Positions 4,292 through 62,140 of a stretch of DNA of 64,000 nt are shown here, piece by piece. A program made the position numbers and the translations under genes. The DNA lies in the UHGV virus genome UHGV-0084588, one strand, 5' to 3'. Positions within the stretch are counted from its first letter, which is position 1; each line of letters opens with the position of its first letter. The DNA comes from a virus. Below the pieces are notes generated by a model. The model worked only from the letters and a program-made list of their open reading frames with translations. It was not told the origin of the DNA and ran no database searches.

Positions 4292-4316
4292 AATTAAAAA
4301 TACTCCGAGGTGAGCA

Positions 4317-6105: not shown

Positions 6106-7626
6106 ATGAAGAACGTTGATGTTGCAGTAATTTACACGGACGGTAGCCATTTGACCTCCCCGCTCGGTACAGGGGCGGGGATTCATGGATACTTATTTAA
6201 TCGTGAAGCGATTGAGGATGGTCGGGTTTACCGCCATCCCACTATTCCAGAGGGGATTACGACGTCAGGATACCGCCAGATAAACAAGGATGAAAAACTT
6301 CCGCCTTTACCAGAAACCGTGGAGTTTATTGACGGCGTTGTTCCTGTACCAAAAATGTCACACTCCGACGTTGCAGAACTCGTGGCTTTCCTGACCGTCT
6401 TCGAACACGCCCCCTTCGTTGCCAAAAACTACGTTATCTATATCGACGCATCTTACGTTGTCAACACGTATAACGACTGGATCGATGGTTGGGCAGCACG
6501 TGGTTGGCGTCGTGCGGACGGTACACCTATTGCGAATCTGGAATTAATCCAACGGATGTGGGAGGTTAAACATCGCTTAAAGAAAGAAGGGAAAGGTGTT
6601 CGTGTCCTTAAAATTAAAGGCCACTCTGGACGTTATGGAAACGAACGCGCAGACGAGTTAGCGCGGAAAGGCTCAATTATCTCTGCCCGAGGGGAGGGGT
6701 TAGACTATACACCGTATTGGTCAAAAGACGAGCTGCCTGAGGAAGAACAGCAACCGGAAGTTGTTGGTGAGGGTGTCAATTTGTCCGCTTTCCCCGATAT
6801 CTGTGTTACGAAGTTCTGTTACCCGATGGTGAACGAACCCCATCCCACTGTTACAGTTAACGGTAATAAACTTTATTACATGTTCGGTGGAAACCACGCA
6901 AAACAGAAGGACGATATCGTCTTCGTTGGTAAGTACATTCCAGATGCACAATTCTGCGTAATGTTTACCAAAGAACCGTGGGATAACGTATACGAGTTGG
7001 TAAATACCCATTCTGCGAAAGCGTGGGAAGGGGTGCCCCGTTTACGTCAATTTGATCCTATCGCCGTTGTTTTTAACTTATTCGTAAAGCGTAAGAAGTT
7101 CGCAGAAGCCGCTGCTAACGGCATTCCTATCGATCGGATGCATTTTAGCGAAGACAAAAACCTGTGGATGTTTGAAGATCTTTCGATTACACGAATTCTT
7201 CGTCCTGCGCTATTATCTTATCGTTGTATTGCGATTCGTGATGAGCTTGCAGGTTGGTTACGCGATGCCATGGAAGGGAAAAACTCAGTAGTGTTGAATG
7301 ACATTACTGACGTACTTTACGATGAGAAAGGTAAGCCGAAGAAAGACATTTATCGTAACGTAGATAAAGGTTTTGACGTAACCATCCAGATCCCTGGTAG
7401 TAAAAACAAGGTTAAAGCTATCCTTACTCGAGGTATCGACATACCGACGCGTACGGAAATCAACCGTATCAAAGAACCGGAAGGGCGGTTCTACGTGGCT
7501 GTACGTCGTCCAGAACGGCAGTATATCGAATACGCGTTGGTTTATATCGGGGAAAAATATCATGGTTTGTGGTGCGGCTATTATTCAAACAAACGAATAT
7601 TGACGGATAAGGAGCTTGAATGCTGA
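6106..7626 (+). CDS. RNase HI domain fused to a roughly 310-aa C-terminal region of unknown function
   Basis: N-terminal 190 aa carry RNase HI motifs (VAVIYTDGS, SHSDVAELVAF, YIDASYVVNTYNDWIDGWAARGWRRADGTPIAN, KGHSGRYGNERADELARKG) closely matching E. coli RnhA; the rest has no recognisable motif. Confidence 0.7.
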   Translation: MKNVDVAVIYTDGSHLTSPLGTGAGIHGYLFNREAIEDGRVYRHPTIPEGITTSGYRQINKDEKLPPLPETVEFIDGVVPVPKMSHSDVAELVAFLTVFEHAPFVAKNYVIYIDASYVVNTYNDWIDGWAARGWRRADGTPIANLELIQRMWEVKHRLKKEGKGVRVLKIKGHSGRYGNERADELARKGSIISARGEGLDYTPYWSKDELPEEEQQPEVVGEGVNLSAFPDICVTKFCYPMVNEPHPTVTVNGNKLYYMFGGNHAKQKDDIVFVGKYIPDAQFCVMFTKEPWDNVYELVNTHSAKAWEGVPRLRQFDPIAVVFNLFVKRKKFAEAAANGIPIDRMHFSEDKNLWMFEDLSITRILRPALLSYRCIAIRDELAGWLRDAMEGKNSVVLNDITDVLYDEKGKPKKDIYRNVDKGFDVTIQIPGSKNKVKAILTRGIDIPTRTEINRIKEPEGRFYVAVRRPERQYIEYALVYIGEKYHGLWCGYYSNKRILTDKELEC

Positions 7627-8288
7627 TCGTTTATAGTGAGGTCTTGTCAAAAGCCCCTCGGTTTTTACAAACTCACTTTATGTATAACGCACGGCAGTAT
7701 TGGGGCTTTAAAGCCCCTTACTCCGAAGATTGGGAAGTTGTGGAAAAGTTAGCATTTGTGTTTTCTCTTTCGTTGTTGTGGGAGATCATTGCACTATACA
7801 ACGCGGGTTGTGATATCCCTGAGAACGGCTTTTTCCAACAACACCTATTCCAAAAATTCACAGCATCGATAGAAAATCATGAAGTACGCAAGGAGTGTAT
7901 CGGCTACGCAGAGCATTCTGAAGAATTGAGAAAGATTTCCAAATTAGTTATCACGCGGGCATGGGCTGAATTCGAAACTTACCCCGAAAAAATAATTTGG
8001 TTTAATCGTGAACAGTTTATTAAAGAGGCAGTCAGTCAACATCCCGTTCGATTAATCGTGTTAAAGCCGTCCGATCTTGCCTTACGCCGTGTCTATTCGT
8101 TTCCAGAGGAAATCATTTTTTCCGCAGGAACAGCAGATTATGGTATTTTTAAGCAAGGTGATTCTTGGATTCTTCCGCACGACTTAGACCAGTATTTGCT
8201 CAATAGCGATCAAATACATTCGGGTTATGACTCACAGGTGAAGGAGTTTACAGTCGATCCTTTTTTCGCTAAAAATATTCTTAGATAG
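7620..8288 (+). CDS. hypothetical protein
   Basis: 222-aa ORF whose start overlaps the upstream stop; operon-like packing. Confidence 0.5.
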   Translation: MLIVYSEVLSKAPRFLQTHFMYNARQYWGFKAPYSEDWEVVEKLAFVFSLSLLWEIIALYNAGCDIPENGFFQQHLFQKFTASIENHEVRKECIGYAEHSEELRKISKLVITRAWAEFETYPEKIIWFNREQFIKEAVSQHPVRLIVLKPSDLALRRVYSFPEEIIFSAGTADYGIFKQGDSWILPHDLDQYLLNSDQIHSGYDSQVKEFTVDPFFAKNILR

Positions 8289-8302
8289 ATATTATCCAGG
8301 TG
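8284..8302 (+). promoter_or_regulatory. candidate phage promoter motif GATAGATATTATCC-AGGTG
   Basis: 14-nt match to the motif at 62141-62154 and near match at 17398-17411; about 25 nt upstream of the 8325 start codon. Confidence 0.3.
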
Positions 8303-8324
8303 TAACACCATTGGAGTTATTAAA

Positions 8325-9062
8325 ATGCTAAAAGTTTATGTCCCTCAATTACAACGTATCAATCCCTCGTTGTTCGAGGGAATCTTTTATAAAATTTGGC
8401 CACAATACTTCAATGAACATTTGAAGGACCCGAAGTGGTCAACCGCACAAGGAGAATTCTTTTATACCGCACAGACTGCCTGCACAAACGTCTTTACTCG
8501 TTTCATCGCTGAGGTTATTGACGCTGTCAATACCAACCGAAACTTTGACCTTCGTGACGTCGTAATAGATCTCTCTGGGATCTTCGATAACTACGATTGC
8601 GATGATGCTGTGTTCGAACATTTCTCTTCTGAAGATGTCTGGGAGGCCGTTTATCAATGGCTAGAATACTACGTAAACCTTCTGCTCTCTCCAGAGATGT
8701 TAGAAAATTTCAATAAAGCACTCTTTCCCATTTATATCGACTTAATGAACGTTAAGCGGACAAAGAACCTCGTTGGTTTCTGGTTTTCGACCTACGATGC
8801 TGAAAGCAGATTGTGGGAAAAAGAAATGATTGCTTTTGGTATCGAGCGCGGCGATTACGATGAATTATATCGAGGGTATTGGCCCTTCGATCGTCACGAA
8901 AACGGCTATTGCGGCAATCCGTACTTGTGGTCTTTTTATTTCTGTAATCAGACCGGTGTTATTTATCTTGAAGACACTGGTGTGCAAATTCCTAACGGTG
9001 CTGATGTAACATACTGCCAGTTACGTAAAGACCGAGACGACATCATTTATCAGGGCTATTAA
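8325..9062 (+). CDS. hypothetical protein
   Basis: 245-aa ORF; RBS GGAGTTATTAAAATG. Confidence 0.5.
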   Translation: MLKVYVPQLQRINPSLFEGIFYKIWPQYFNEHLKDPKWSTAQGEFFYTAQTACTNVFTRFIAEVIDAVNTNRNFDLRDVVIDLSGIFDNYDCDDAVFEHFSSEDVWEAVYQWLEYYVNLLLSPEMLENFNKALFPIYIDLMNVKRTKNLVGFWFSTYDAESRLWEKEMIAFGIERGDYDELYRGYWPFDRHENGYCGNPYLWSFYFCNQTGVIYLEDTGVQIPNGADVTYCQLRKDRDDIIYQGY

Positions 9063-9063
9063 C

Positions 9064-9606
9064 ATGAAAATACTTATCGATTTCTCACTCAGCGAGTCAC
9101 GGGACAAATTAAACAAGGTGTTAAGTGAAATGCGTAGTCGTGTTGCGTTTGAATTACACGATGCAATAGCAGTGCATGAGAACAAGATTTCTGAAGAACA
9201 CGATGGTGCTGATATTACTATCCTGGATTCAGAAGAGATGGTGAATAACCTCGTTGAGCAGTTAGTGATAAAAATCAGTTCGGCCATGACATACCCGCAT
9301 TTAGTGCAGGTAACTGATCCCGATACCGATATTCGCCTGATTCTTGAGAAAGCCTTTCTACATGCCGCGCATTACTTACAGAATAATGCTCCAGATACCC
9401 TCGACGAAGTGTACGTCGCAATATTGCAGCGCCAATCTTCAACGACGGATATAATAGACACAACATGTTGGAGCGATATTCTTACCAACGAAACGATGTC
9501 CCGTATCCGGGATATTTTCCTTGAGACACTCGGGTTAGTTGAGAAAATCTGTCATGCTGAGCTCATCTACCTATCGTCAAAATACGGACAACCTAAAGGA
9601 GTATAA
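9064..9606 (+). CDS. hypothetical protein
   Basis: 180-aa ORF tightly packed after the upstream gene. Confidence 0.5.
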   Translation: MKILIDFSLSESRDKLNKVLSEMRSRVAFELHDAIAVHENKISEEHDGADITILDSEEMVNNLVEQLVIKISSAMTYPHLVQVTDPDTDIRLILEKAFLHAAHYLQNNAPDTLDEVYVAILQRQSSTTDIIDTTCWSDILTNETMSRIRDIFLETLGLVEKICHAELIYLSSKYGQPKGV

Positions 9607-9608
9607 CC

Positions 9609-10133
9609 GTGGATATTTTAATTCAGCTTCGTAAGAAAACAACCATTGCCACGCCGATAGCGTTAGAGGAGAAAATCTCTGGCGCGGTTGCACGCAAGCT
9701 CTGTGGTGCCCACGGCTTTAGCGACCATCAGGAGCGGGTCGTTACTGCCGCCACATTACACAACTTACGACACACAGTTCATTACTGTTTAGTTGACAAC
9801 GTCACCATCACTCTTGATGATAACGTAAAGGTCGACCAACTGCGACGCGAAATTGTCCACAAGATCGAGTCTTACAATAGACGTTTCGATCGGGCGTGTG
9901 CGCGTTTAACTGATGACGAGGCTCTACGAAAACGTTTGAAACTTGAAATTGAGTATGCGGCGCAACGTTACGGGATTGGCGGTACCGAACCGTGTCTGAC
10001 TGAACAAGAAATCACGTTAGCAATCGAGGTTTATACCACTCTCTGCTGCGTCATCCTAAAAGAGACCAACCACGAAATTACAAAAGCGTTGTTAAACACC
10101 GCAGACAAACTCTCCCCAATTTTAGGACAATAA
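9609..10133 (+). CDS. hypothetical protein
   Basis: 174-aa ORF with GTG start preceded by AAGGAG. Confidence 0.45.
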   Translation: MDILIQLRKKTTIATPIALEEKISGAVARKLCGAHGFSDHQERVVTAATLHNLRHTVHYCLVDNVTITLDDNVKVDQLRREIVHKIESYNRRFDRACARLTDDEALRKRLKLEIEYAAQRYGIGGTEPCLTEQEITLAIEVYTTLCCVILKETNHEITKALLNTADKLSPILGQ

Positions 10134-10134
10134 A

Positions 10135-10620
10135 ATGAACGTAAATGCAATTATCAATCTCTCTAATAGCGACATTGTCCACGAGTTTCTGAACCACTGC
10201 GATCGCACAGAACAGTCTATCCGTAACTTGTTAGCTCCGAAAACAGTGGATGCCATTTGGATAGCTTCACAGGCAGCGGGCGTTATCGTTGCAAGATATC
10301 GCGCGACATTGCTAATGAATCTGGACAATTTCTTCGATCAGCCAGGGCTTATTACATGGACTTCTATCGGGCGTCGGTTTTACGACATCCGTATCGAAAC
10401 CCTACGCTCGATAATTAATGGCTGGCACAACGGGTATATGCCTGACGTAACAGTACCCTACACTGCTCCCGAATGGCGACGCTTTTATAGTCAGATATGG
10501 AGTAATGAAAGCGTTTATCATGAAATAGTGGCACTTATCAGTGCCGACCAAAGCCAACTTGCATACCAGCTATGGGAGTGGCTAAAAGCTAATTATCCTG
10601 ATTACGTCAAAATCGACTAA
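10135..10620 (+). CDS. hypothetical protein
   Basis: 161-aa ORF; start 2 nt after the upstream stop. Confidence 0.5.
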   Translation: MNVNAIINLSNSDIVHEFLNHCDRTEQSIRNLLAPKTVDAIWIASQAAGVIVARYRATLLMNLDNFFDQPGLITWTSIGRRFYDIRIETLRSIINGWHNGYMPDVTVPYTAPEWRRFYSQIWSNESVYHEIVALISADQSQLAYQLWEWLKANYPDYVKID

Positions 10621-10626
10621 CACCCA

Positions 10627-10657
10627 CCCTAGCTTCGGCTAGGGTAACTTTATTTTT
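10627..10657 (+). terminator. intrinsic terminator
   Basis: CCCTAGC-ttcg-GCTAGGG hairpin followed by TAACTTTATTTTT. Confidence 0.5.
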
Positions 10658-10679
10658 AACCATTTTAGGAGAATATGCC

Positions 10680-11606
10680 ATGTATTTGTACAAAAGTAAA
10701 AAAGTAAAAGGTATTAAAGACTGCCTTAGACAAATGGGGAGTCAGCATCTAGAAAATGTCATGGAAGAAAATCAAACAAAAGAAAATCCCGTCTCGAAGT
10801 GGATAAAAAAGAATCGTAAGCATTTAACTAATGCCTTTATACCCTACGACGCTGAGTTAGGCCTCAAAGATCCCCGTTCTCTTCACGCTCAAACATTGGC
10901 AATTGGATGGCTATACGGTGGTGCTTCCTTAATATCCGATCGAGCACTTAGAGAACTTGTTTTCGAGACTGAGATGCCCAGTAAATTCCCTGAAGAGTGG
11001 TTAGACTTTATACCTACTTGGACTGTAGCAATCGATGTAGGTAAAGAAGATGAGACTTTCTTTCTCGGTTATCGAAAAAATAGGAATAGAAGGTTTATTA
11101 TAATCGCTACAAATACTGATTACGGGTTAACAGAAGGCGTTACCACGATCGCCACCTGCTCGTTAGAGATATGTAGTGTTGGAAACGGGCTTGTTGAAAT
11201 CGATTATACGACTGGCGTACAGACCGAACAAGAGAAGACGTTATGGTTATCACTGGCTAAGACCGCCATATCGTTGATATTTCTCTGTACGCTAATCCCG
11301 CCTAATCTCAGAGGGTCTTTCAATGACATTAAGTTCAAAGAAATCAAAAAGAATGGTAGCATAAGTCACGAAATCAAACCTCGTGAACGTGACGTTAAAA
11401 TAGACATCACGCCAGGACAAGTGAAATATCTAAAGGGATTTAACACCGACTTGAAAACCATGGAAGGTATCAAACACGCCAAGGCTGCACATATTCGTCG
11501 CGCACACTGGCGCAGATATTGGGTCGGTCCAAGAGATGGGGAAAGGAAGAGAAAACTTTACTGGATTCCGCCTACATTTGTCCGTGGCTACGTACCCCAC
11601 AATTAA
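10680..11606 (+). CDS. hypothetical protein, paralog family with C-terminal AHIRRAHWRRYW motif
   Basis: 308-aa ORF; RBS TAGGAGAAT; C-terminus KAAHIRRAHWRRYWVGP...WIPPTFVRGY. Confidence 0.55.
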   Translation: MYLYKSKKVKGIKDCLRQMGSQHLENVMEENQTKENPVSKWIKKNRKHLTNAFIPYDAELGLKDPRSLHAQTLAIGWLYGGASLISDRALRELVFETEMPSKFPEEWLDFIPTWTVAIDVGKEDETFFLGYRKNRNRRFIIIATNTDYGLTEGVTTIATCSLEICSVGNGLVEIDYTTGVQTEQEKTLWLSLAKTAISLIFLCTLIPPNLRGSFNDIKFKEIKKNGSISHEIKPRERDVKIDITPGQVKYLKGFNTDLKTMEGIKHAKAAHIRRAHWRRYWVGPRDGERKRKLYWIPPTFVRGYVPHN

Positions 11607-11631
11607 GCTAAAAGTGTTTAGGAGCATTAAA

Positions 11632-12531
11632 ATGATAGCGAATAATAGACTTTACGGGAAAGCGCTAAGACGCATGAGCGAACAGATAGAAAAAGCGCAC
11701 CAAACAATTCACGGATTAGACCAGTGCCGTTTTATTCGGTTCATTAACGAGCATAAACGACAAATACCCGTAACGTTTATGCCAGTTAAAGATCCGACTT
11801 ATCGAGAGTATGGTGTTACAGAACAGATTCCTAGACTGATTAAACAGTCCCTGGGTCTAGGGTGGCAATACGCTGCTGTTGAAATCATCTCGGATGAAGA
11901 ACTGATGGCGCTCTTAGCAAAAACTGAGAGACTAAAAAATATCCCGTACTTCTGGATAGAAACCATCCCTTCATTTACTTTCTCGGTTACCGTAAATCTC
12001 GACGAAAGCCCAATCACGTTATTTATCGGAAGACGTCTTTACGAAGGCGAAGAAGTTCTCTTTGTGATGTCATGCGAAGAACGTGAAGAATCGGTATACA
12101 TGGAGTTTGAGATTTACAAAATCGATAAAAGCGAAGATGATTTCGTCGAGCTAAAACCGCTCCTTACTTCGGTTAAAGAGAATCAACGACTACTCGACGC
12201 CGTCTACATCGGGCTATATCTTTCGTCACGAATTAAACGTACTGAACGTGAGAAGAAAGAATTTCGTGGAAGAACGATTCGTTATGTTCCTGATACAGAG
12301 ATTCGCCCACGTAGTGAAGCAGTCGTTTTAGACGTAAGTCCGGTACAATGGGAAGATATAGAGCAGCAACGCAAGGAAGGACACGAGGTTTGTTTGGCAA
12401 TTTATTGCGCAGCACATATCCGTCGTGCTCATTGGAAGCGTGTATGGTGTGGTAAAATGTCAGAAATGCGCTGGCGCGAATGGCGATGGATAGCGCCAAG
12501 CTACATCTCTGGATTTTATCGTGGGAAATAA
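11632..12531 (+). CDS. hypothetical protein, paralog of the upstream gene
   Basis: ATG at 11632 after TAGGAGCATTAAA preferred over the longer track ORF; C-terminus CAAHIRRAHWKRVWCG...WIAPSYISGFY. Confidence 0.55.
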   Translation: MIANNRLYGKALRRMSEQIEKAHQTIHGLDQCRFIRFINEHKRQIPVTFMPVKDPTYREYGVTEQIPRLIKQSLGLGWQYAAVEIISDEELMALLAKTERLKNIPYFWIETIPSFTFSVTVNLDESPITLFIGRRLYEGEEVLFVMSCEEREESVYMEFEIYKIDKSEDDFVELKPLLTSVKENQRLLDAVYIGLYLSSRIKRTEREKKEFRGRTIRYVPDTEIRPRSEAVVLDVSPVQWEDIEQQRKEGHEVCLAIYCAAHIRRAHWKRVWCGKMSEMRWREWRWIAPSYISGFYRGK

Positions 12532-12539
12532 ATAGTTTA

Positions 12540-12586
12540 CCCCTAGACCGTGTGGTCTAGGGGTAGCTTTACTTTTTTATTTTTTG
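12540..12586. terminator. intrinsic terminator at the end of the plus-strand gene block
   Basis: CCCCTAGACC-gtgt-GGTCTAGGGG hairpin followed by a long T-tract that runs into the 3' end of the minus-strand gene. Confidence 0.55.
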
Positions 12587-13332: not shown

Positions 13333-13430
13333 TCTAAAACCTCGGATTATAAGTCAGGGTTACATAGTAAAGTCTTTTTACAGTTCACCCAAACCTTATG
13401 ACCGAGACAATTCCATAAAGGTAAAGCTCG

Positions 13431-15286: not shown

Positions 15287-15586
15287 ATGCGTTATCAAAC
15301 GGAGATTGTGGAACGCTTAAGTGAAGGATTGGCAAGTGTTAATTTAGAAACAGCGGCCGAATTTCGTGAAGCCTTCACTCTTCCGTTTCCCGATCTGGAA
15401 TCCTTTTGTTTAAAGGTCGCTGAGTATTACTCGAATCTATTAGTACGTTACGGGTATGCGCCAGTACGTTCCGAACTTCCTGAAAACACGGAAGCTATCA
15501 GCTACTGGATTGACCTGCTTGAAGCAGAAACGTTATCCAATCTACGTAAGGCGGTAGACAATGAAACTCGAACCAGCGCGGCGTAA
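15287..15586 (+). CDS. hypothetical acidic protein
   Basis: 99-aa ORF; RBS TAAGGAG immediately after a hairpin. Confidence 0.4.
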   Translation: MRYQTEIVERLSEGLASVNLETAAEFREAFTLPFPDLESFCLKVAEYYSNLLVRYGYAPVRSELPENTEAISYWIDLLEAETLSNLRKAVDNETRTSAA

Positions 15587-16229
15587 GAAGGCGGAAGCCT
15601 ACGCCTTACAAATCTTAAAGTTGGTAGACCCTTCTGGCATTAATGCCGAAGCCGCGAAGAAAGCCTTCGCACGAATGACCGACGAACAGTTTAACCGACT
15701 TCGTAACGGTTTACCTATTTACAACCCGGTGGGAAGTAAAGTCGAAATTGACCACCTGCGCAATATCGAGGTGTGCAAAATCCTAGGGGTAAACCTGGAG
15801 CAACGGTTGTGGCTAACAGAACCAAAAACAGGTGTTTATCACCGTACTCGTTACCCTCACTTGGTCTTACGCTTGCCTGTCCGTCGTCAGACGCAGATGC
15901 AAGAAAAGAAAATGGCGGTTGCGAAGAACGACAAAGTTCGCGATAAACTCTCCGGTCAAGTTGTCGGTCCTTCCAAAGCATCCGGGGTCTCCTTCCCAGA
16001 AGCATACATCATGTATTCCGATGGTCACGACTGGACACTGAAAGAGTTCTTGTGGGCGCGTGGTGGTAACGACGCACTACAACGTGCTTTCTATCAGTCG
16101 CTGCGCCAAACCGGTAAAGGACGTATCGATTTGCCTGGAGCGGAGCGAACGAGTTCTAAAGCAACACGGACGTGGTCAGCGTACCTCAAAGCGATGCATA
16201 TCGGTAACAACATAGGCCATCCGTCATGA
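15561..16229 (+). CDS. hypothetical protein
   Basis: 222-aa ORF overlapping the upstream gene by 26 nt in another frame. Confidence 0.45.
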   Translation: MKLEPARRKKAEAYALQILKLVDPSGINAEAAKKAFARMTDEQFNRLRNGLPIYNPVGSKVEIDHLRNIEVCKILGVNLEQRLWLTEPKTGVYHRTRYPHLVLRLPVRRQTQMQEKKMAVAKNDKVRDKLSGQVVGPSKASGVSFPEAYIMYSDGHDWTLKEFLWARGGNDALQRAFYQSLRQTGKGRIDLPGAERTSSKATRTWSAYLKAMHIGNNIGHPS

Positions 16230-16948
16230 GATTATCTCGACGTTTCTTAATCGATATTGATACGCTATTTGATACGCGTTTAGGTTGGGTAAAAGCCATT
16301 AAGCCTGAAAGCTTAGCCTTACTAGACTACGATGTTTATCGGCGTCGCTATACAGAAGCATGGGCGGGTGTACTCGGGTTTGAAAAATGGGATGAAGAGT
16401 GGCGGAAGCGGGATAAGCGCGCATTGATTAATGCGCAGCCTACTGAATTATTGGCAACGATGAAAAACGAATTCGAGTGTATGATGCTTGAAATCGAAAT
16501 GCATTCGCCAATTGAAAAACCTACTCTGACCATCAATACATGGCCTTATACGGATTTAACAGGCGAAGAACTTCAAGCCTTTTTGAATCTGTTTCGGATG
16601 TATTACAATAACGTACAAGTCGAATTGGTGTCTTGGTCGTTAGAAGACCTCACACCGGGGAGATTATCATTGGCGTGGGATTGCTGGATAATGTACGATT
16701 GGTTCGAGTGGATTAAGCTTAACGCTTCGCACTTGAAAAAACCGATTCCAAGCTTTACCATCACACACCCTGCCATGCTCACACCAGAATTGACCGGCGT
16801 GTTGGTTGAACAAATCAAACAAGACGGCGTTAACCCGTTTAAGGAACATATCCGGTTTATGGCAGAGTGGGTCGGTGTCGACCCACGGGATGCTGCTTTA
16901 TTTAGTCTTGCTCGTCCTGTTCAGGACGTGCAAACGCCGCCATCATAA
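16226..16948 (+). CDS. hypothetical protein
   Basis: 240-aa ORF with ATGA start-stop overlap to the upstream gene. Confidence 0.5.
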   Translation: MRLSRRFLIDIDTLFDTRLGWVKAIKPESLALLDYDVYRRRYTEAWAGVLGFEKWDEEWRKRDKRALINAQPTELLATMKNEFECMMLEIEMHSPIEKPTLTINTWPYTDLTGEELQAFLNLFRMYYNNVQVELVSWSLEDLTPGRLSLAWDCWIMYDWFEWIKLNASHLKKPIPSFTITHPAMLTPELTGVLVEQIKQDGVNPFKEHIRFMAEWVGVDPRDAALFSLARPVQDVQTPPS

Positions 16949-17366
16949 TGGACTTAACATCGATTTGTTCACCTACTGGTGCCAGCTCCCCTTCTGTTAC
17001 CTCAACATTGGGAATAGCAGGAACGGGGGGCTGGTAGCCCTGGGTTTCTTCGATTTCCTCATCATGACGTCGTATTTTGATATTACCACGTTGCATGAGG
17101 ATGCTATTAAGTGCATTCGCCAAATCTTGGTTAGCTTCGCTGTTTTTCTGTGCAGCGGCGACACGACGTTTGGAAATGATTTGTTTATCAACGTCGTTAA
17201 GCAAAGACCCTAGACGGTCTACCGTTTTCAAGTCTTTGTGTGCTTGTGGATCGTCTAAGATGAGGTTCACAATCCGTACACGGGCTTGTTGCGTTTGGCG
17301 GAGAAGCGATTCTTCGTCGTCCACATCTCCATCAAACGCCTGATATTTCACTTCTTCGTCAGCCAT
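16902..17366 (-). CDS. hypothetical protein with strongly acidic termini
   Basis: 154-aa ORF; RBS GAGGTAG on the minus strand; N-terminus MADEEVKYQAFDGDVDDEE, C-terminus PEQDEQD; 3' end overlaps the convergent upstream gene. Confidence 0.45.
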   Translation of the reverse strand: MADEEVKYQAFDGDVDDEESLLRQTQQARVRIVNLILDDPQAHKDLKTVDRLGSLLNDVDKQIISKRRVAAAQKNSEANQDLANALNSILMQRGNIKIRRHDEEIEETQGYQPPVPAIPNVEVTEGELAPVGEQIDVKSIMMAAFARPEQDEQD

Positions 17367-17397
17367 TCTTACTACCTCAATTTCAAAAAGAAGTCAG

Positions 17398-17420
17398 ACA
17401 GATATTATCTACGTGAGACA
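17398..17420 (+). promoter_or_regulatory. candidate phage promoter motif GACAGATATTATCT-ACGTGAGAC
   Basis: Near match to 8284-8302 and 62141-62163; 18 nt upstream of the 17438 start codon. Confidence 0.3.
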
Positions 17421-21597: not shown

Positions 21598-21637
21598 TAC
21601 CCTACTCCTAGACAGGAGTAGGGTATTTTCATTTTTT
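21598..21637 (+). terminator. intrinsic terminator
   Basis: TACCCTACTCC-tagaca-GGAGTAGGGTA hairpin followed by TTTTCATTTTTT. Confidence 0.6.
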
Positions 21638-23517: not shown

Positions 23518-24551
23518 TGAAACAGTATTTAGCGTTAATGCAAGACATTCTGGATAACGGTGTTGTTAAGAAAGACCGCACAGGTGTAGGGACACTTTCT
23601 GTATTCGGCCGTCAACTACGTTTTGACCTGAAAGAAGGTTTCCCATTAGTCACTACGAAAAAGGTTCACCTGAAAAGTATCATTCATGAACTGTTGTGGT
23701 TCTTAAACGGTGACACTAACGTGAAGTACCTGCAAGAGAACGGGGTAAAAATCTGGAATGCATGGAGTGATGAAGAGGGGAACTTAGGGCCAGTTTATGG
23801 TAAACAATGGCGCGAATGGCGCGACTGTAAAGTTGTGGAGTGCCATGACGTAAGACGTACACAACAACTGATGCAGCGGGGTTACAAGTATATTGGGAAT
23901 ATGAAGGAAGATGGTACGACGTATTTGGTTTATGAAAAACCACATGACCAGATCAGCAAAGTTATCCAACAACTTCGTGAAGACCCTGACTCCCGCCGTA
24001 TTATCGTTAGCGCCTGGAATGTAGGTGACCTGGACGATATGGCACTTAATCCATGCCACAACTATTTCCAATTCTACACAACAGAAATGACGTTGCTTGA
24101 ACGACTGGATTGGTACGAAGCAAATGAACCGGAAAAATTTGCGAACGCGCCACTTATTAATCACGAAGATATTGATGATGAAGAACGACTTCATGAAACT
24201 TTAGATCGTGAAGGTATCCCTCGTCGTAAGCTTTCATGTTTTTACATGATGCGCAGCAACGATGTCGCATTAGGAAAACCGTTCAACATCGCGTCATACG
24301 CTCTGTTAACTCATATGGTTGCCCAACAAGTGAATATGGTTCCCGATGAGTTAGTTTATAGTGGGGTCGATGTGCATTTATATCTGAACCACATCGATCA
24401 AATAAAACTCCAGTTGACTCGTGAGCCGTACCCGTTACCTAAATTGGTTATTAAACGTAAACCCGAATCTATCTTCGACTACAAATACGAGGACTTTGAA
24501 GTAGTCGGTTACCAATCACACCCACACATCGCCATGCCTGTCGCGGTGTAA
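23517..24551 (+). CDS. thyA: thymidylate synthase (ThyA type) with two insertions
   Basis: Long stretches match E. coli ThyA ([59 protein letters not shown], catalytic [22 protein letters not shown]); 344 aa versus about 264 because of two inserted segments. Confidence 0.9.
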
Positions 24552-24580
24552 ACTACCACTTAACTAAAAGGAATGATAAA

Positions 24581-25027
24581 ATGTCTAAAACTCATGTTGA
24601 CTATAACATCGTAGTAGAAGAATTATCAAAAGGTTTAACCGATCTGGATTCTAAAGATAATCCGTTTACTGATCGTTATGGTCCCAATGCCTTATCTGAA
24701 TTTCGTACTATCCGCTACGGTACAGGCAGGCAGACAGGACTTACAGACTTCGGTGTCGAGTTAGCTAAGAACCATAAAGGGAAGGTGTTATTCGTTAACC
24801 CAAAAGGGTTCTTAGAGGACGATGTGCTATTCCGTTTGGGTCTCGAAGACTTGCCTGAGAATATCACGCAAATCATTGGTTATCAGATGGGTACAGAAAA
24901 AGAAAAATACAGTCTTGTCATTGTAGACGACGCTGGGGTTTTCTTTAGCATGTTCCGTTACATGAAGTTTTTCCGCTTACTAGCAAACTCAGTAACTAAA
25001 GACGTCGTAATACATTTAATGGGTTAG
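24581..25027 (+). CDS. hypothetical protein
   Basis: 148-aa ORF; RBS AAAGGAATGATAAAATG. Confidence 0.5.
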   Translation: MSKTHVDYNIVVEELSKGLTDLDSKDNPFTDRYGPNALSEFRTIRYGTGRQTGLTDFGVELAKNHKGKVLFVNPKGFLEDDVLFRLGLEDLPENITQIIGYQMGTEKEKYSLVIVDDAGVFFSMFRYMKFFRLLANSVTKDVVIHLMG

Positions 25028-25046
25028 TTGGCGATAAGGAAAAATT

Positions 25047-25220
25047 ATGTTGGGCGATGTTCTTAATTTCACAATATCGTATTTCGAGCCGAAGAAGTTC
25101 CGTACTTTTAACACACGTTATTGTAAAGGGCCGAAAAAAGGGCGTAAACGTTTCCAAGTAATCCAACTTGATTATTCCAAGTTCCTTGAAGCTAACCCAT
25201 TCGAGAAGGAGGAACAATGA
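25047..25220 (+). CDS. small basic hypothetical protein (57 aa)
   Basis: Below the ORF-track cutoff; RBS AAGGAAAAATTATG; stop overlaps the next start (ATGA). Confidence 0.3.
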   Translation: MLGDVLNFTISYFEPKKFRTFNTRYCKGPKKGRKRFQVIQLDYSKFLEANPFEKEEQ

Positions 25221-25399
25221 AGAAGCCATATTTTCATAACCTCAGATTCTTTACAGGTACTCTATATTTTATTGGCTACAACCGCGTACGTAAGGGACCT
25301 GGTAAATCGAAAGTACGCACTGTGCAGTATAAAAAGGCAATGACAGCGTCAGTTCCATTACGGATGGGCCTGCTTCTGTCTCACATCCGCCATCGTTAA
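25217..25399 (+). CDS. small basic hypothetical protein (60 aa)
   Basis: RBS GAAGGAGGAACAATG; translationally coupled to the previous small ORF. Confidence 0.3.
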   Translation: MKKPYFHNLRFFTGTLYFIGYNRVRKGPGKSKVRTVQYKKAMTASVPLRMGLLLSHIRHR

Positions 25400-25441
25400 A
25401 TCAAAACTGCTAACACCTTTGTAAGAAATTTGGGAACTAAA

Positions 25442-25585
25442 ATGACTGAAGAAGTTAAAGTAGAAACCGTTAAAGAAACTGATGAATTTGCAATCCCTGG
25501 CTTAGACCCGGAAGCGACCGTAGAGAAGGGAGCCGACCCGACCACGGAAGACGATAACTGCTCAGGCGGGGCTTGCAAAATTTAA
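25442..25585 (+). CDS. small acidic peptide (47 aa) ending in CSGGACKI
   Basis: Below the ORF-track cutoff; followed immediately by a strong terminator; weak RBS. Confidence 0.25.
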   Translation: MTEEVKVETVKETDEFAIPGLDPEATVEKGADPTTEDDNCSGGACKI

Positions 25586-36470: not shown

Positions 36471-36499
36471 AACGTTTAATCCGTATCAGGAGATTTAGC

Positions 36500-38119
36500 G
36501 TGAATAAACTTAATTGGGTTGACTTTTATCTGCTCAATGTAAACAAGTCTCTTGTGTCGCGATTACGACCCGTCACGACCACGGATACTTTCCAGGGGTT
36601 AACAAAAAACTTTCACCCCGAAGGTCTTTACTCTACAGAGATTTTTGGACTCACGGGTAGTGAAGCGCGAGACTCTACATTCTCTTATATCGATATTAAA
36701 CTCGATATCATTTCGCCGACAGTGTGTTTGGCGTTATTCCAACTCAAACAACTCTACGAAGAAATTTGTTCTGGAAAACGCTACGCAACGTGGAGCGAAA
36801 AAGAAAAAGATTTCGAACCGGCCTTGCCGGGAGACCCAGGCGCAGATACCGGTTTTAACTTCTTCCTCAGTCACTATAACGATTTAAAACCTAAGCGTAA
36901 CGAGTCCCTACAACGTGACGAAACCGTGGATTTCTTTTTGAAATTCCGCCCCGTCAGTCTTAGTCGATACGTTCTCGTGTTACCCGCGGGTTTACGCGAT
37001 TTAGTAATTCGGCAAGATGGCAGAGAGCAAGAAGAAGAAATCGGTGGGATGTATCGTCGGTTGGTATCTCTCGCCAGGGCAATCCCTGACCGAGCAACCC
37101 GTGTCGAATTAACTAACCCCGTACGCTGGAAACTTCAACAAACCTTCAATGATATCTGGATGTATTTCTTTAACATCCAAGACGGTAAAGGGGGTTTCCA
37201 ACGTCGTAAAGTGACGTCTCGTAAATTAATGAACGGGACACGTAACGTATTGTCCTCGTTCTCGACGGGGTCTAAATGCATGGGTCGTGAAGACGCTATT
37301 CGTCCTACCGACACCAAAATTGGTTTATACCAGGGTTTAAAAGCATTACTCCCTGTTGCGCAGTACCAAATACGTGAACGTTACCTCGGTAACATCCGTG
37401 CTGGTGATGGCAACCTTTACGGCGTAAACACCAAAACCCTTAAACGTGAATTCTTGGAAGTAGGTGGTCGTGTATACGACACCTTTACCACCGACGATGG
37501 GATTGAATCCTTAATCAACCGAATGGAAGCTCGCGAGCTTCGCCATCAGCCGATTATGTTGGATGACACCCACTACATTGCGTTGGTTTACCAAGACACC
37601 AAACATTTTAAGGTGTTCTACGATATTGAAGAACTTCCTAAAACGTTTGACCGAAAATTCGTTCACGGTATGACACTCGTCGAATTGCTTTATTTGTCGG
37701 GCTACGAACTTTGGAACGATTATTTCGGTTTCGTTACACGTTATCCCGTTACAGGCCGAGGCTCGACGTATTCATCGACCATAAGATTGGAGACCACCAC
37801 GTCATCTTTATATTTAAAAGAACTGGAAGATGACTGGGAAACTGAAAAACCCCGAGGGGCTATCAGTTACCCTGACCGGTCGGTTCCTACCTTCGTTGAG
37901 TCTATGGCACCACACCCTTCACGCCTAGGTGGCTTAGGGGGTGACTATGACGGTGATACCGGCTCGTTTAACGCGCCTATGTCCCAGGAAGCGCTCGAGG
38001 AAAACCGGAACTGGATACACTCGAAAAACTACTGGTTCGATTCTGATGGGAACTTTAAAATCAATCCTATCAACAACGTGATTAAACGTGCAACGCAAGC
38101 GTTATTAAAGAACCCATAA
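36500..38119 (+). CDS. multisubunit-type RNA polymerase beta-prime-like subunit, N-terminal half
   Basis: GTG start after [18 protein letters not shown]...MYRRLV parallels bacterial beta-prime VLPVLPPDLRPLV...[29 protein letters not shown] parallels [43 protein letters not shown] parallels the catalytic [20 protein letters not shown]. Confidence 0.75.
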   Translation: [539 protein letters not shown]

Positions 38120-38128: not shown

Positions 38129-41100
38129 ATGCTGCTCATTAAACAGTTTAACCAACGCTTCTCGGTGCGTAAAACCGACGAGTTTGGTAATCCGAGGATT
38201 ATCCCGCTCGAGAAGCTACAGATACCGCGTGGTTCTGTACTCCACGTCATTGATCTCGACCAGGTGGTATTAGCACCGCCTGCAACGCTTGAAATTATTC
38301 AACCGTTAGAAAAACCTGCTCAGGTTCGCCACCACTTTAAATTACCGGAAGACGGTATTAGTGGGCATCCTCGTAACAAGCCTGTACAGGGACAAGAACG
38401 TGCTATCTTTGCCTACCACCGTGCAAACCGTCCGATGCGTCGTCTTACCTCAGACGAACTGGTTCGCAAAGACTTAAAAGTTCTCCTGATCGAGAACTAC
38501 ACGCCGATGTTATCGCACTACTACTATCCTGACACCCAGTTAGCCTGGTACGATAGATTGCGTAACATCCAACTATTGATGATTAACCAGTTCAAATACG
38601 ACACGCAAGAATACATGCGTCAGAACTATTTCGTTATTGAACTGGGTTCGGCATTGCCTTCGTTCCAGAAGTTTCAAACAACCTATAACGACCGTGTTAA
38701 GAGCAAGATTGAGAAGTTCCAGGACTTCAACTTGCTGTGGTTATTAGAATTGTTTGCTTGGGCTTATGGAAAACAATCTGATTCCTTATTCGCGGGAATG
38801 GATTTAACTCAGCTGTCACGAATGAACTTTATCTTCACCCACAACACGGGCTTTACGTCCATGAACATGGGTGTTGTAGAGAAAATGCGTAAGTCTTCCG
38901 GCGGCCGTTTAAGTGACGACCAAATGGCGCGGATGTTCTACCGTACGCTGGTGCGTGTAATGACACAAGCACCGTCTAACGCGTACGAAGCGGAGTTCCT
39001 AACGCCTGAAGGTGACGAACGTGTTTTCCTTAAAGACGTCGAAGAAGAAACCGTTGATGTTGTCGACGACGATGACGTTGTTAATGACGCTGTGGTGGAA
39101 TCCGATAACACCTTCGATGAAAAAGAAGACGTTGTTATTGAAGAACCGAAGGAAGACGTCAAACCGACGACAATTGTTGTCGAGAAAGTCATTCCGCATG
39201 ACGAAATTATTAAACAGGAAGCACAACGCTTAGCTGAAGCGGGCCGCTTAAGTTCTAAAGCATATCAGTTCCTGTCTGAATCGTCTAAACGTTTCGTTCA
39301 GCTGCCTAACCCGTATAACCCGAAAGAAACCTACGGGGAAGCGCTTACTGTTCACGAAAAGGATATCGTCGTTAAAGCTGAACCGAAAAAAGTTCAGCGG
39401 CTTGTTACCGACGAAGGGTGGGCAGAGAACGTCACCGACCAGATGGTGAAACAGTACAACCAGACCATGATGACCAAGGACGTACTGGCGGCGGTCGCCA
39501 GTTCACAACGTTTGGGTCTGGCAGTTCACAACCACACGGTGGAAAAAGAAGTTTCTGTTACAGGGACTATCGAACACCACACTTTACGTGTTCAGCCGGT
39601 CGGCGGTGAACCAACAACCGTTCGCTTCTCCATCCCAGGCTTGACCGAGGACGGTACTTGGGTAGCTAACGGTGTCGAATACACCATGCGTCGACAACGT
39701 GTGGACTTACCGATTCGTAAAGTTGCGCCGGATACAGTCGCGCTGACTACCGCTTACGGTAAAAACTTTGTCCGTCGTAGTGATAAGGTCGCGAACGATT
39801 ACGGTCGTTGGTTAACCAACGCGATTATCACACGTGCTGTTGATCCGACAAACACCGAAGTCACCGATGCACGTTTAGCAAATGTGTTCGATCCTACGCA
39901 ACATCTGCCGCGTCAGTATACGGAGATTGCACGCCGTATTGCCAGCTTTAATGCAAACGGCTATATGTGGAACTTCGACTACAAAGAAGCCGTTAACTTC
40001 TTTAACGACGAGCAGCTCAGAGACGCCGATGCTGCCAAACTTCTGCCGGTGGCGAAACGTCCGCGTAGTGAAACAATCCTGGCAATGGATGACAAATCCA
40101 TGCTTTACGGTGTGAACGGAAACAAAGTTGAGCCAGTGGGAACTATCGCAGAGGTACTGGGCTTTAATAGCCAGAAAGTGCCTCGCGAAATGACCGAGCT
40201 GTCTTTGATGGGTAAATCTTTGTCGCTTGGTTTTATCTTCTCGTTCTATCTTGGACTCCAGGGAATGTTGAAACATTTCGGTATCCAATACGAGTTGGTT
40301 CCTGCAGGTCAACGTGTTGATAAGAATGCCTACGACAGTATTATTCGACTACAAGACTGTAAACTTTTAGTTACTTGCGATAACGATCAACAGAAGATGA
40401 TTCTGCATGGTTTGGATCGCTATCTCAAACACCTGGTTGCTTATACCGAATCAGAAGCAGACCGTGAAGACATTTACCTGAACTTATTACGTGATGCAGA
40501 TGGCCTAACACCACGGTACATCAACGAGCTGAAACAGATGCGGTCCGCGTTTGTTGACGACATGCACGCACGTATCCTCAGGAAAATGGGTGAACCAGAA
40601 ACCTTTATTGGTTTGCTGGAACGTTCTAACGAACTGTTACAAACTGACCACTCTTTACCAGAGATTAACGGCGACGAAATGATGTTCTTAGGAAATCAGA
40701 GGATTGCCTACCACATCTATACCGCGATGGTCAGAGCGATGCGTAACTACAATAACGCACCGGGTAGTAACCGTAAGTTCGAACTGACGCAAGACATGGT
40801 TTGGGGTGCAATTAACTCCGACCCGTCGGTACTTTTGGCACCAGGCGCTAACCCTATTCAGTCGATTAAAGAAAAAGACGTTATTACGATGGGGGGTACA
40901 GGCGGTCGTAATCGTAAAACGATGGTCTACCACACGCGTGAATTCCAACCCAGTGATATCGGGATAGTCTCGGGTAACACCGTAGATAACGGGGACGTAG
41001 GTATTACTGCTTTCGTCACCAATAACCCACGTTTTGACACCGTTGACGGTACTACGTTTAAACGTGAAGAGAAAACCCCGAAACCAAGCGACACCCTTTC

Positions 41101-42295
41101 GTTTATTGACGGGTTAGTACCAGATACGTTAATGGACGACGCAAAGCGTCAAAACTTCGTTGGGATTCAGTTAGGTTCTGCCACCAGTTGTATTGGGGCA
41201 ACCACAACCCCGTATCGTACTGAACAGGAGAAATTCGTCGCACACCGTACTTCGGTGAAACATGCACGCGTTATTGATAAAGCAGGTAAGATTACTGGTC
41301 TGTCGAAAGACCACATTGAAATTACGTACGAAGATGGAAGTAAAGAAGCCTTTCCTCTAGGGCGCTGGTTCGGCCCCCACGAAGGTACCTTCTATCCGCA
41401 CACCTTGGTAACACGCTGGAAAGCCGGTGATAAGCTCCCGGCCGGAGCAGTGATTACGTACAACGAGCAACACTTTGAACCTGATATTTACGATCCTACT
41501 CAGGTTTCCTGGAAAAACGGGGTACTGGCTACCGTTGCTTTATTAGAAGCTGAAGAAGTTATCGAAGACTCCAATGCAATTTCTGAACGGTTCGCGAAGA
41601 AAATGGTGGGGCAGGTAACAAAGCTGAAAGAAGTGACGATTAACAGCAACCAGATGCTTCTGGAAATCGTGAATGAAGGAGACCACGTAGACGTCGATAC
41701 AATCCTATGCACGTTTACTGACGACTTGACAGGCGATATGAGTGCCTTTAGTCAGGAAGCAGCCGCAACGTTGCAAAGTTTAAGTTCGTACGCACCTCGT
41801 GCAGGGGTACGTGGTATCGTGGATAAGATCGAAGTGGTGTATCACGGTGAAACCGAAGACATGACACCAAGCCTTGCTGAACTGGTGCGTAAATACGACA
41901 GAATTCGTCGTAAAGCCGCTTTGGCAGTTGGGCGAGGTGATCCGGTTTCAGGCAGTGTAAACGGCGACTACCGTGTCGAAGGTGTACCATTAGCCTTTAA
42001 CTCACTTTGTGTTCGATTCTTTATTACACACGACGTTGAGATGGCCGCTGCGGATAAGATGGTTATTGCTAACCAGCTAAAAACCACCGTACAAGAAGTC
42101 ATGTACGGCGACAACAAAACAGAGGATGGTGATGACCTGGACGTGTTGTTCGGTCGTGATTCTGTCGATGCGCGTATCGTAGGTTCAATCCAACGTATCG
42201 GTACCGCGAATGCTGTAGGTGAACAAGCCGGGATTCTCATCGGGCGTATACTCGATGGGGAAGCTGTGCCTGATTTACCCGCGACACTTAAATAA
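38129..42295 (+). CDS. multisubunit-type RNA polymerase beta-like subunit
   Basis: C-terminal third shows beta-like blocks in order: HTREFQPSDIGIV...FVTNNPRFDT, WKAGDKLPAGAVI, EDSNAISERF (compare EDSILVSERV), PRAGVRGIVDKIEVVYHG (compare PNGVSGTVIDVQVFTRDG), AADKM (compare PGDKMAGRHGNKG); N-terminal two-thirds not assignable. Confidence 0.55.
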   Translation: MLLIKQFNQRFSVRKTDEFGNPRIIPLEKLQIPRGSVLHVIDLDQVVLAPPATLEIIQPLEKPAQVRHHFKLPEDGISGHPRNKPVQGQERAIFAYHRANRPMRRLTSDELVRKDLKVLLIENYTPMLSHYYYPDTQLAWYDRLRNIQLLMINQFKYDTQEYMRQNYFVIELGSALPSFQKFQTTYNDRVKSKIEKFQDFNLLWLLELFAWAYGKQSDSLFAGMDLTQLSRMNFIFTHNTGFTSMNMGVVEKMRKSSGGRLSDDQMARMFYRTLVRVMTQAPSNAYEAEFLTPEGDERVFLKDVEEETVDVVDDDDVVNDAVVESDNTFDEKEDVVIEEPKEDVKPTTIVVEKVIPHDEIIKQEAQRLAEAGRLSSKAYQFLSESSKRFVQLPNPYNPKETYGEALTVHEKDIVVKAEPKKVQRLVTDEGWAENVTDQMVKQYNQTMMTKDVLAAVASSQRLGLAVHNHTVEKEVSVTGTIEHHTLRVQPVGGEPTTVRFSIPGLTEDGTWVANGVEYTMRRQRVDLPIRKVAPDTVALTTAYGKNFVRRSDKVANDYGRWLTNAIITRAVDPTNTEVTDARLANVFDPTQHLPRQYTEIARRIASFNANGYMWNFDYKEAVNFFNDEQLRDADAAKLLPVAKRPRSETILAMDDKSMLYGVNGNKVEPVGTIAEVLGFNSQKVPREMTELSLMGKSLSLGFIFSFYLGLQGMLKHFGIQYELVPAGQRVDKNAYDSIIRLQDCKLLVTCDNDQQKMILHGLDRYLKHLVAYTESEADREDIYLNLLRDADGLTPRYINELKQMRSAFVDDMHARILRKMGEPETFIGLLERSNELLQTDHSLPEINGDEMMFLGNQRIAYHIYTAMVRAMRNYNNAPGSNRKFELTQDMVWGAINSDPSVLLAPGANPIQSIKEKDVITMGGTGGRNRKTMVYHTREFQPSDIGIVSGNTVDNGDVGITAFVTNNPRFDTVDGTTFKREEKTPKPSDTLSFIDGLVPDTLMDDAKRQNFVGIQLGSATSCIGATTTPYRTEQEKFVAHRTSVKHARVIDKAGKITGLSKDHIEITYEDGSKEAFPLGRWFGPHEGTFYPHTLVTRWKAGDKLPAGAVITYNEQHFEPDIYDPTQVSWKNGVLATVALLEAEEVIEDSNAISERFAKKMVGQVTKLKEVTINSNQMLLEIVNEGDHVDVDTILCTFTDDLTGDMSAFSQEAAATLQSLSSYAPRAGVRGIVDKIEVVYHGETEDMTPSLAELVRKYDRIRRKAALAVGRGDPVSGSVNGDYRVEGVPLAFNSLCVRFFITHDVEMAAADKMVIANQLKTTVQEVMYGDNKTEDGDDLDVLFGRDSVDARIVGSIQRIGTANAVGEQAGILIGRILDGEAVPDLPATLK

Positions 42296-47281: not shown

Positions 47282-47290
47282 AACCTTTCG

Positions 47291-47330
47291 GCTAGTCTAT
47301 TCGATGAATAGACTAGCCCACCTTTATTTT
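47291..47330 (+). terminator. intrinsic terminator
   Basis: GGCTAGTCTATTC-gatg-AATAGACTAGCC hairpin followed by CACCTTTATTTT. Confidence 0.55.
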
Positions 47331-47350
47331 AACCGTATTGAAAATTATCT

Positions 47351-47375
47351 TAGATATATTTTACTTAGGTGAGCG
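47351..47375 (+). promoter_or_regulatory. candidate phage promoter, variant motif TAGATATATTTTAC-TTAGGTGAG
   Basis: Looser relative of the GATAGATATTATCC-GTGAGA motif; lies between a terminator and the 47426 start. Confidence 0.25.
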
Positions 47376-47425
47376 TTGTAGAATTACACGCTATTCGACT
47401 GTTTAACCTAAAGGAGTATTAAAAA

Positions 47426-50214: not shown

Positions 50215-50217
50215 TGC

Positions 50218-62117: not shown

Positions 62118-62140
62118 TAGTGAACCTCGAAATAATTACG

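Follow-up and report, generated by a model that had tools for sequence, protein, structure and literature searches.

Candidate early promoters for the virion RNA polymerase in a genome of an SPN3US-like jumbo phage

Introduction

What is the role of a short AT-rich element that recurs just upstream of start codons in the virus genome UHGV-0084588? The question was raised by a sequence-only reading of a stretch of 64,000 nucleotides of this genome (one strand, 5' to 3'; here called the window), in which near-identical motifs had been noticed at three places together with a looser relative at a fourth. The present analysis leads us to the view that the four elements are very probably early promoters of a phage similar to Salmonella phage SPN3US, which would be recognised by the multisubunit virion RNA polymerase (vRNAP) injected with the DNA. 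This kind of element is already known; it is found here in a phage without a close sequenced relative.

Motifs of this type were reportedly predicted for all jumbo phages encoding an RNA polymerase (RNAP) by Lavysh et al. in 2016 (Virology), and Ceyssens et al. are said to have described the vRNAP-dependent early promoters of phiKZ in 2014. In every RNAP-encoding jumbo phage, the early operons are preceded by a phage-specific, highly conserved AT-rich element of about 10 nt, centred near position −10, and wherever the transcripts were profiled this element turned out to be the early promoter (PMC7598289). The early promoters of phiKZ have since been refined (PMC8244752; PMC10914365). The early promoter of Bacillus phage AR9, AAATATATATTAT-(6N)-G(+1), is transcribed without new protein synthesis and thus by the injected vRNAP, and transcription in phiKZ and phiR1-37 also starts 6 nt past the AT-rich element (PMC5312081).

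Results

Four copies of the motif in the window

The three near-identical copies are present with the sequences that had been quoted: GATAGATATTATCCAGGTG at 8284-8302, GACAGATATTATCTACGTGAGAC at 17397-17419 and GATAGATATTATCCTAGTGAGAG at 62141-62163. The first and the last had been located correctly, whereas the second had been placed one base off, at 17398-17420. The degenerate 14-mer GAYAGATATTATCY matched the window exactly three times (at 8284, 17397 and 62141, always on the + strand) and not once in 100 dinucleotide-preserving shuffles; allowing two mismatches yielded no extra sites in the window. The three occurrences of GATATTAT on either strand of the window are all in upstream regions.

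A weight matrix of 38 columns (consensus AnTcnAAaAaaTTTCAGATAGATATTATCTnnGtGAga) was built from 22 SPN3US sites only and is therefore independent of the window. The matrix produced exactly four hits in the window, at 17400 (40.0 bits), 62144 (38.1 bits), 47356 (34.6 bits) and 8287 (31.9 bits), compared with a top score of 15.9 bits in 200 Markov shuffles. The next-best scores in the window (12.7 bits or less) are reverse-strand echoes of the partly palindromic core. The looser relative suspected near 47351-47375 corresponds to the hit at 47356, with the sequence AGATATATTTTACTTAGGTGAGCG at 47352-47375. According to their cores, the elements fall into class A (GATATTATC, followed by a short unstructured leader; the three strong sites) and class B (TAT(A/T)TTAC-YTAGGT; the fourth site):

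Predicted promoter site 1, class A: 8268-8305, + strand; core GATAGATATTATCC at 8284-8297, predicted +1 G at 8302; 31.9 bits, exact motif
Predicted promoter site 2, class A: 17381-17418, + strand; core GACAGATATTATCT at 17397-17410, predicted +1 G at 17415; 40.0 bits
Predicted promoter site 3, class A: 62125-62162, + strand; core GATAGATATTATCC at 62141-62154, predicted +1 G at 62159; 38.1 bits
Predicted promoter site 4, class B (TTAC type): 47337-47374, + strand; core GATATATTTTAC at 47353-47364, predicted +1 G at 47371; 34.6 bits

All four hits are intergenic, although 95.9% of the window is coding and only 4.1% intergenic, and all four are on the + strand together with the next gene, with 38-70 nt between core and ATG. 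A random scatter of copies within coding regions, which the sequence-only reading had named as the observation that would speak against it, was not seen. The distances between the end of the quoted motif and the ATG at the three strong sites (22, 18 and 27 nt) are close to the 18 to 30 nt that it had given.

The elements share one layout, i.e. an A-tract, TTTCAGAT, (A/T)ATATTA(T/C), six bases and then G, and the core reads GATATTATC at three window sites and ATATTTTAC at one. A conserved AT-rich element of about 10 nt of the TATATTAC / ATATATTAT type is present in the window. The information in the 22-site SPN3US profile amounts to 1.0-1.5 bits per position across AGATATTAT. The A-tract and the TTT(C)AG block upstream are conserved in this profile and in phiKZ; the window sites have the A-tract and a weaker TTT (TTCTTAG, AAGTCAG, ATTACGG and TATCTTAG). 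The G located 6 nt past ATTA(T/C), which is defined as a feature of the sequence only, occurs at four of four window sites and at nearly all SPN3US sites (1.4 bits).

Site 1, which has an A-tract upstream and whose overlap with the preceding gene is confined to the stop codon, heads an operon starting with ATG 8325 and has a 23-nt leader. Sites 2 and 3 are located in divergent gaps of 71 nt (16902-17366 on the − strand and ATG 17438 on the + strand; 23-nt leader) and 73 nt (60741-62117 on the − strand and ATG 62191 on the + strand; 32-nt leader), respectively, and site 3 heads a single-gene unit which ends at the terminator 63326-63345. Site 4 lies directly downstream of a terminator hairpin (47290-47318), the stem of which is kept through base changes in the orthologues, and heads an operon starting with ATG 47426 (55-nt leader):

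Intrinsic-terminator-like hairpin: 47290-47328, + strand; GGCTAGTCTATT-cgatg-AATAGACTAGCC with a T-rich tail, ends the upstream unit just before site 4

According to the matrix scan of the window, the vRNAP, tail sheath, terminase and other structural genes are not preceded by the motif; there is no hit between 17400 and 47356, and so none before the vRNAP genes homologous to gp240 and gp241 of SPN3US.

Another hairpin, TCCCTCG-ttgtt-CGAGGGA followed by atcttttata, was observed at 8363-8381, 38 nt inside the first gene 3' of site 1. It could be due to chance or represent a premature terminator as described in phiKZ leaders.

Conservation in related phages

The motif was found at orthologous gaps in seven relatives which represent six genera and show as little as 56% identity in a conserved protein. 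SPN3US has it at all four sites, SPAsTU, pEa_SNUABM_29 and phiEaH2 at sites 3 and 4, and Parshik, Kwan and EarlPhillipIV at sites 1 and 2. In the gap alignments, the conserved blocks are the motif and the ribosome-binding site. Mean pairwise identity was 0.85-0.97 in the 13-nt core and 0.75-0.96 from the core to +1, compared with 0.37-0.69 in the other intergenic columns; at site 1, the core reached 0.91 and the flanks 0.37, and the motif identity at site 4 was 0.96. Since the motif and the ribosome-binding site are the sole conserved blocks in the gaps of sites 2 and 3, the motif is the only conserved candidate there, provided that a + strand promoter lies within the gap.

Scanning the whole SPN3US genome with the matrix gave 24 sites above 30 bits, all of them on the + strand. 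According to our own open reading frame (ORF) call, 22 of the 24 are outside ORFs in a genome that is 95% coding, and the RefSeq annotation places one of the two others (7394) between genes as well. The motif stands at the head of all three operons encoding the non-virion RNA polymerase (nvRNAP) of SPN3US, at 15618 and 15711 (gp22-gp23), 28973 (gp34-gp35) and 72490 and 72688 (gp76-gp77); gp35 and gp77 are nvRNAP subunits (PMC5105663). Other operons with the motif at their head include the genes of DNA polymerase, DNA helicase and dihydrofolate reductase. According to the matrix, no motif copy is present in the regions 114-162 kb and 192-223 kb, where most virion structural genes and three of the vRNAP genes are located. 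Since nvRNAP is unable to make its own first transcripts, this is the distribution predicted for an early promoter read by vRNAP.

One strong SPN3US copy (25230; 38.4 bits) falls within the annotated gene 23886-25493, with 276 nt to the following start codon, and is possibly an internal early promoter. The elements are not annotated in the records of SPN3US and its relatives, and literature searches on the motif and on SPN3US promoters turned up no paper stating this consensus. In EarlPhillipIV, the annotated start of gp204 (10677) falls within the promoter core ATATGTTATC (10675-10690). This annotation is likely wrong. Translation probably begins some 20 nt further downstream, at the ATG in GTGCATGGGG, which would leave the mRNA with a very short leader or none.

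Occurrence of the motif in phiKZ

The sequence-only reading had pointed to TATATTAC-like early promoters of phiKZ-like phages, and such a motif was indeed found in the phiKZ genome itself. The motif aAAAAnnTTTrAGATcTATATTAC-(6N)-G, derived directly from the genome, occurs at about 13 intergenic + strand sites within 1-90 kb, including those before PHIKZ054, PHIKZ068 and the nvRNAP gene PHIKZ071. The early motif stands at the primary start site of PHIKZ054 (PMC8244752). The phiKZ site TTTCAGATTTATATTACTAAGGTG (before PHIKZ058.1) and the SPN3US class B sequence TTTCAGATATATATTACTTAGGTG have 22 of 24 bases in common. Promoters of the phiKZ and SPN3US clades do not occupy orthologous positions; for instance, the counterpart of the site 3 gap, PHIKZ032/PHIKZ033, has no motif. 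The architecture TTT-AGAT-N-TATATTA-Y-(6N)-G is common to both clades, between which conserved proteins show only about 25-35% identity, and the core with its 6-nt spacing was found in AR9 too.

Leaders of class A and class B

When the leaders were folded singly, all 11 class B leaders formed a hairpin beginning at the predicted +1 or +2. These leaders are from the window (47372-47406), SPN3US (4431, 56298, 65417, 94243, 113990, 165691 and 223281) and relatives (L006 5116, L007 5288 and L008 5723). Their mean free energy of folding was −6.7 kcal/mol (n=11), compared with −1.5 kcal/mol for class A (n=13). The sequence of the stems varies while the pairing is kept, e.g. AGCGTT/AACGCT and AGATTA/TAATCT. 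In most class B leaders there is also a conserved single-stranded box, AATCGACYATTA, which precedes the Shine-Dalgarno sequence by about 10-15 nt. No consensus structure of the class B leaders was obtained with RNAalifold from a MAFFT alignment, because the loop lengths differ and the alignment is poor. The features of site 4 are the following:

Class B 5'-terminal stem-loop: 47372-47392, + strand; AGCGTTGTAGAATTACACGCT, from single-leader folding
Class B leader box: 47393-47406, + strand; ATTCGACTGTTTAA, about 10 nt before the Shine-Dalgarno sequence, recurring at this place in SPN3US

The hairpin at the predicted +1 or +2 is what would be expected of a 5'-terminal stem-loop and supports the assignment of the starts. 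It is possible, but at present a tentative proposal, that the two classes are functionally distinct subclasses of early promoters and that class B could mark early mRNAs under post-transcriptional control. Such control, if true, might consist in stabilisation, selective translation or recognition by a factor of the phage or one associated with the ribosome. We know of no description of such a hairpin-bearing promoter subclass in jumbo phages.

The box AATCGAC(T/C)ATT was also observed about 15 nt before the Shine-Dalgarno sequence of promoterless SPN3US genes (57146, 167592 and 224197), which ties it to translation-initiation regions and not to the promoter itself.

Identity of the phage and its virion polymerase genes

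The window belongs to a phiKZ-type jumbo phage of the SPN3US-like branch. It is collinear with 176-240 kb of SPN3US, with a mean protein identity of about 60% (local tblastn). A protein of 685 amino acids (51097-53154, − strand) matches the Pfam family phiKZ_gp29PR, and a structural protein of 838 amino acids is 76-77% identical to its counterparts in SPN3US and relatives. Megablast of 7000-12000 of the window against phage records gave no match, and the closest phage record shows about 75% nucleotide identity even in a conserved structural block. There is thus no near-identical annotated genome from which the answer could be taken, and the values of about 75% at the nucleotide and about 60% at the protein level indicate a distinct SPN3US-like lineage. 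Homologues of four vRNAP subunits are encoded in the window (tblastn identities; subunits according to PMC5105663):

vRNAP subunit, SPN3US gp218 homologue (beta C-terminal part): 15561-16229, + strand; 82.8% identity
vRNAP subunit, SPN3US gp240 homologue (beta' N-terminal part): 36500-38119, + strand; 85.8% identity, within SPN3US 212357-218188
vRNAP subunit, SPN3US gp241 homologue (beta N-terminal part): 38129-42295, + strand; 76.7% identity, within SPN3US 212357-218188
vRNAP subunit, SPN3US gp244 homologue (beta' C-terminal part): 44106-44840, + strand; 86.1% identity

The proteins gp218, gp240, gp241 and gp244 of SPN3US were detected as virion-associated by mass spectrometry (PMC5105663), and from these homologues we infer that the phage of the window would package its vRNAP as well.

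Two long ORFs overlap in antisense orientation, 50185-51069 (+) and 50218-51093 (−). The latter is 89% identical to a virion structural protein of SPN3US and has a phiKZ homologue. The 66% 'conservation' of the former is only a by-product, and the ORF is probably not a gene.

Terminators, ribosome-binding contexts and other gaps

A family of G+C-rich terminator-like hairpins was observed at 1648-1669, 2259-2284, 12538-12565, 21598-21625, 26498-21, 29318-37, 50174-50200, 58305-30 and 60703-32, with related stems (CCCTACTCC/GGAGTAGGG, CCTACCTCC/GGAGGTAGG and CCTCCTACCC/GGGTAGGAGG). Several of them look bidirectional, since they are located at convergent junctions with T-runs on both strands. The hairpins are reminiscent of a conserved terminator motif described in phiKZ (PMC10914365). 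Upstream regions of the window repeatedly contain an extended ribosome-binding context, CCTAAAGGAG, e.g. at 47413-47422 and 62173-62182, and its 8-mer CCTAAAGG is found in four upstream regions among its five occurrences on both strands of the window.

No motif copy is present in the divergent gaps between virion or late genes at 36471-36499 (just 29 nt), 4292-4316, 13333-13430 and 53155-53216. The promoters of these genes must be different and partly located inside coding sequence; they are presumably of the nvRNAP type.

Discussion

The four elements found in the window are, in our judgement, very probably early promoters. The analogy to phiKZ early promoters read by a phage polymerase, which had been suggested in the sequence-only reading, is supported, as far as the comparison of sequences goes, by the type of phage, the motif in phiKZ and the common architecture. 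The vRNAP injected with the DNA would recognise these elements. Their AT-rich core (A/T)ATATTA(T/C) is centred near −10, and six weakly conserved bases separate it from the conserved G, which is usually followed by AGA and is taken as +1. Transcription would start at 8302, 17415, 47371 and 62159 on the + strand, and the transcripts would cover operons of non-virion genes and end at hairpins such as 10626-45, 21598-625, 49563-80 and 63326-45. The start sites, the early timing and the polymerase are those we infer by homology. The punctuation of the operons, with site 4 right after a terminator and a single gene between site 3 and the next terminator, supports this assignment, as do the four vRNAP subunits encoded in the window.

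Several points weigh against it. The literature searched yields no 5' ends, timing or polymerase assays for this phage or other SPN3US-like phages. The window contains no nvRNAP gene, so that the link to early genes rests on orthology with SPN3US. No informative annotation of the downstream genes emerged when 20 proteins from the surroundings of the four sites were scanned against Pfam, and PHROGs gave only families of 'unknown function'. The SPN3US matrix found three phiKZ sites at 22-25 bits (95th percentile of the null 13.8), which is only about the top of the null (maximum 23.3 in 100 shuffles). A fair sigma-70 −10 hexamer (TATTAT) is part of the core, and independence of the host polymerase has been established for phiKZ and AR9, which belong to other clades (PMC5312081; PMC7598289). 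In AR9, a single-base deviation from the consensus abolished activity (PMC5312081); the inactive g057 variant has C for A in ATATTAT. A match in sequence is consequently no guarantee of activity at each of the sites.

Early promoters of many virulent phages are of the host sigma-70 type. The elements might be such promoters, with TATTAT, which agrees with TATAAT in five of six positions, as the −10 hexamer and the A-tract of the A/T-rich upstream region as an UP-like element; a relaxed scan even revealed weak '−35' hexamers at a distance of 16-18 nt at sites 1 and 2. These hexamers match the consensus in only 3/6 positions, however, and no such hexamer was found at sites 3 and 4. The standard consensus scan found nothing at site 2, and the −35 positions have near-zero information in the 22-site profile, in agreement with the earlier remark that a −35/−10 layout is missing. 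The bases conserved outside the hexamer (CAGATAG directly on its 5' side, C/T on its 3' side and the G at a distance of 6 nt further downstream) are no sigma-70 determinants, and the class B sequences TATTAC and TTTTAC are devoid of the critical final T of the −10 hexamer. As the same architecture occurs in phiKZ and AR9, which are transcribed without the host polymerase (PMC5312081; PMC7598289), we consider recognition by the sigma-70 holoenzyme very improbable. Use by nvRNAP as middle-class promoters, or by both phage polymerases, would be conceivable because some phiKZ genes, e.g. PHIKZ054, have both early and middle promoters (PMC8244752) and the annotation assigns no temporal class to the downstream genes in the window. 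This explanation is nevertheless improbable, since the first transcription of the three SPN3US nvRNAP operons headed by the motif cannot depend on nvRNAP, and it is the early class that the sequences match. The motifs known for nvRNAP differ from the present one, namely TATG at +1 in phiKZ late promoters, TACT at about −22 after an A-repeat in phiKZ middle promoters and AACA-(6N)-TA/G in AR9 late promoters (PMC7598289; PMC8244752). At the appropriate distance from the conserved G, none of these elements shows conservation, and the TACT within class B cores is at about −8, not −22.

The motif might also be no promoter but a binding site of a phage regulator or an RNA-level signal in the 5' untranslated region. 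The dyad symmetry of the core (GATA-T-TATC or AGATA-N5-TATCT), with its reverse-strand echoes of 9-13 bits, would suit an operator, and the proximity to ribosome-binding sites would suit both. A symmetric operator, however, needs neither the strand of the downstream gene, on which all 24 SPN3US and all four window copies are found, nor the asymmetric conserved flanks (TTTCAG on the 5' side and (6N)-GAGA on the 3' side). A + strand promoter is required in the divergent gaps, where only the motif and the ribosome-binding site are conserved. As for an RNA signal, the distance to the start codon, which is 38-70 nt in the window and reaches 276 nt in SPN3US, is untypical for a translation signal, and no Rfam match was obtained with gathering thresholds in the whole window. 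We find this explanation hardly credible, while an operator may overlap the promoter. On sequence grounds, T4-type early, middle (MotA box) and late (TATAAATA) promoters, promoters of T7-type single-subunit polymerases and N4 hairpin promoters were also considered, and all were rejected as not fitting the conserved positions.

For specialists, the assignment of the four elements as early promoters is expected rather than surprising. It provides a working transcription map of the window, with four predicted early starts and their operons set apart from the virion-gene blocks, where the absence of the motif means that other promoters are needed. With this consensus, early operons can be annotated directly in the many SPN3US-like phages of Salmonella and Erwinia that are under development for biocontrol. 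A shorter query is less suitable: a 14-mer scan of IMG/VR with AGATAGATATTATC hit >120 contigs, mostly unrelated and with one match each, and was too unspecific. An architecture common to distant clades points to strongly conserved promoter recognition by the virion polymerase, an enzyme that was still unpurified as of 2017 (PMC5312081).

Comparison with known promoters

With sigma-70 promoters of the −10 or extended −10 type, the elements share an AT-rich hexamer, TATTAT, about 7 nt before the predicted start, and the phiKZ early motif itself has been termed an 'extended −10 box' (PMC8244752). They differ in having no −35 element and no TG extension, in the conserved bases outside the hexamer and in the class B sequences without the final T. 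AR9 has the same core, ATATTAT, with a conserved G at exactly the same 6-nt spacing, and agrees with AGATAGATATTAT in 11 of 13 core positions, whereas its upstream part is AAATAT instead of TTTCAGATAG; AR9 also differs in its uracil-containing DNA and the lack of a phage nucleus and is only distantly related. There is no difference in kind from SPN3US and its Erwinia and Salmonella relatives (Seoulvirus, Erskinevirus, Machinavirus, Wellingtonvirus and Derbicusvirus), which have an identical consensus at orthologous positions.

The likeness to phiKZ comprises the A-tract, TTTrAGAT, one base, TATATTAC, six bases and G, as well as the location on the + strand in intergenic regions at the heads of operons, including those with nvRNAP genes. 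Class B sites of the window and SPN3US carry TAT(A/T)TTAC-YTAGGT-G, and one subclass contains TATATTAC. In contrast, three of the four window sites have the variant core GATAGATATTATC, which ends in TTAT and not in TTAC, and the initial transcript is usually GAGA in the clade of the window and SPN3US but G followed by an A/T-rich sequence in phiKZ. The starts have been mapped experimentally in phiKZ and are predicted from the sequence in the phage of the window. Judged by their sequences, the elements of the window are homologues of the phiKZ early promoters.

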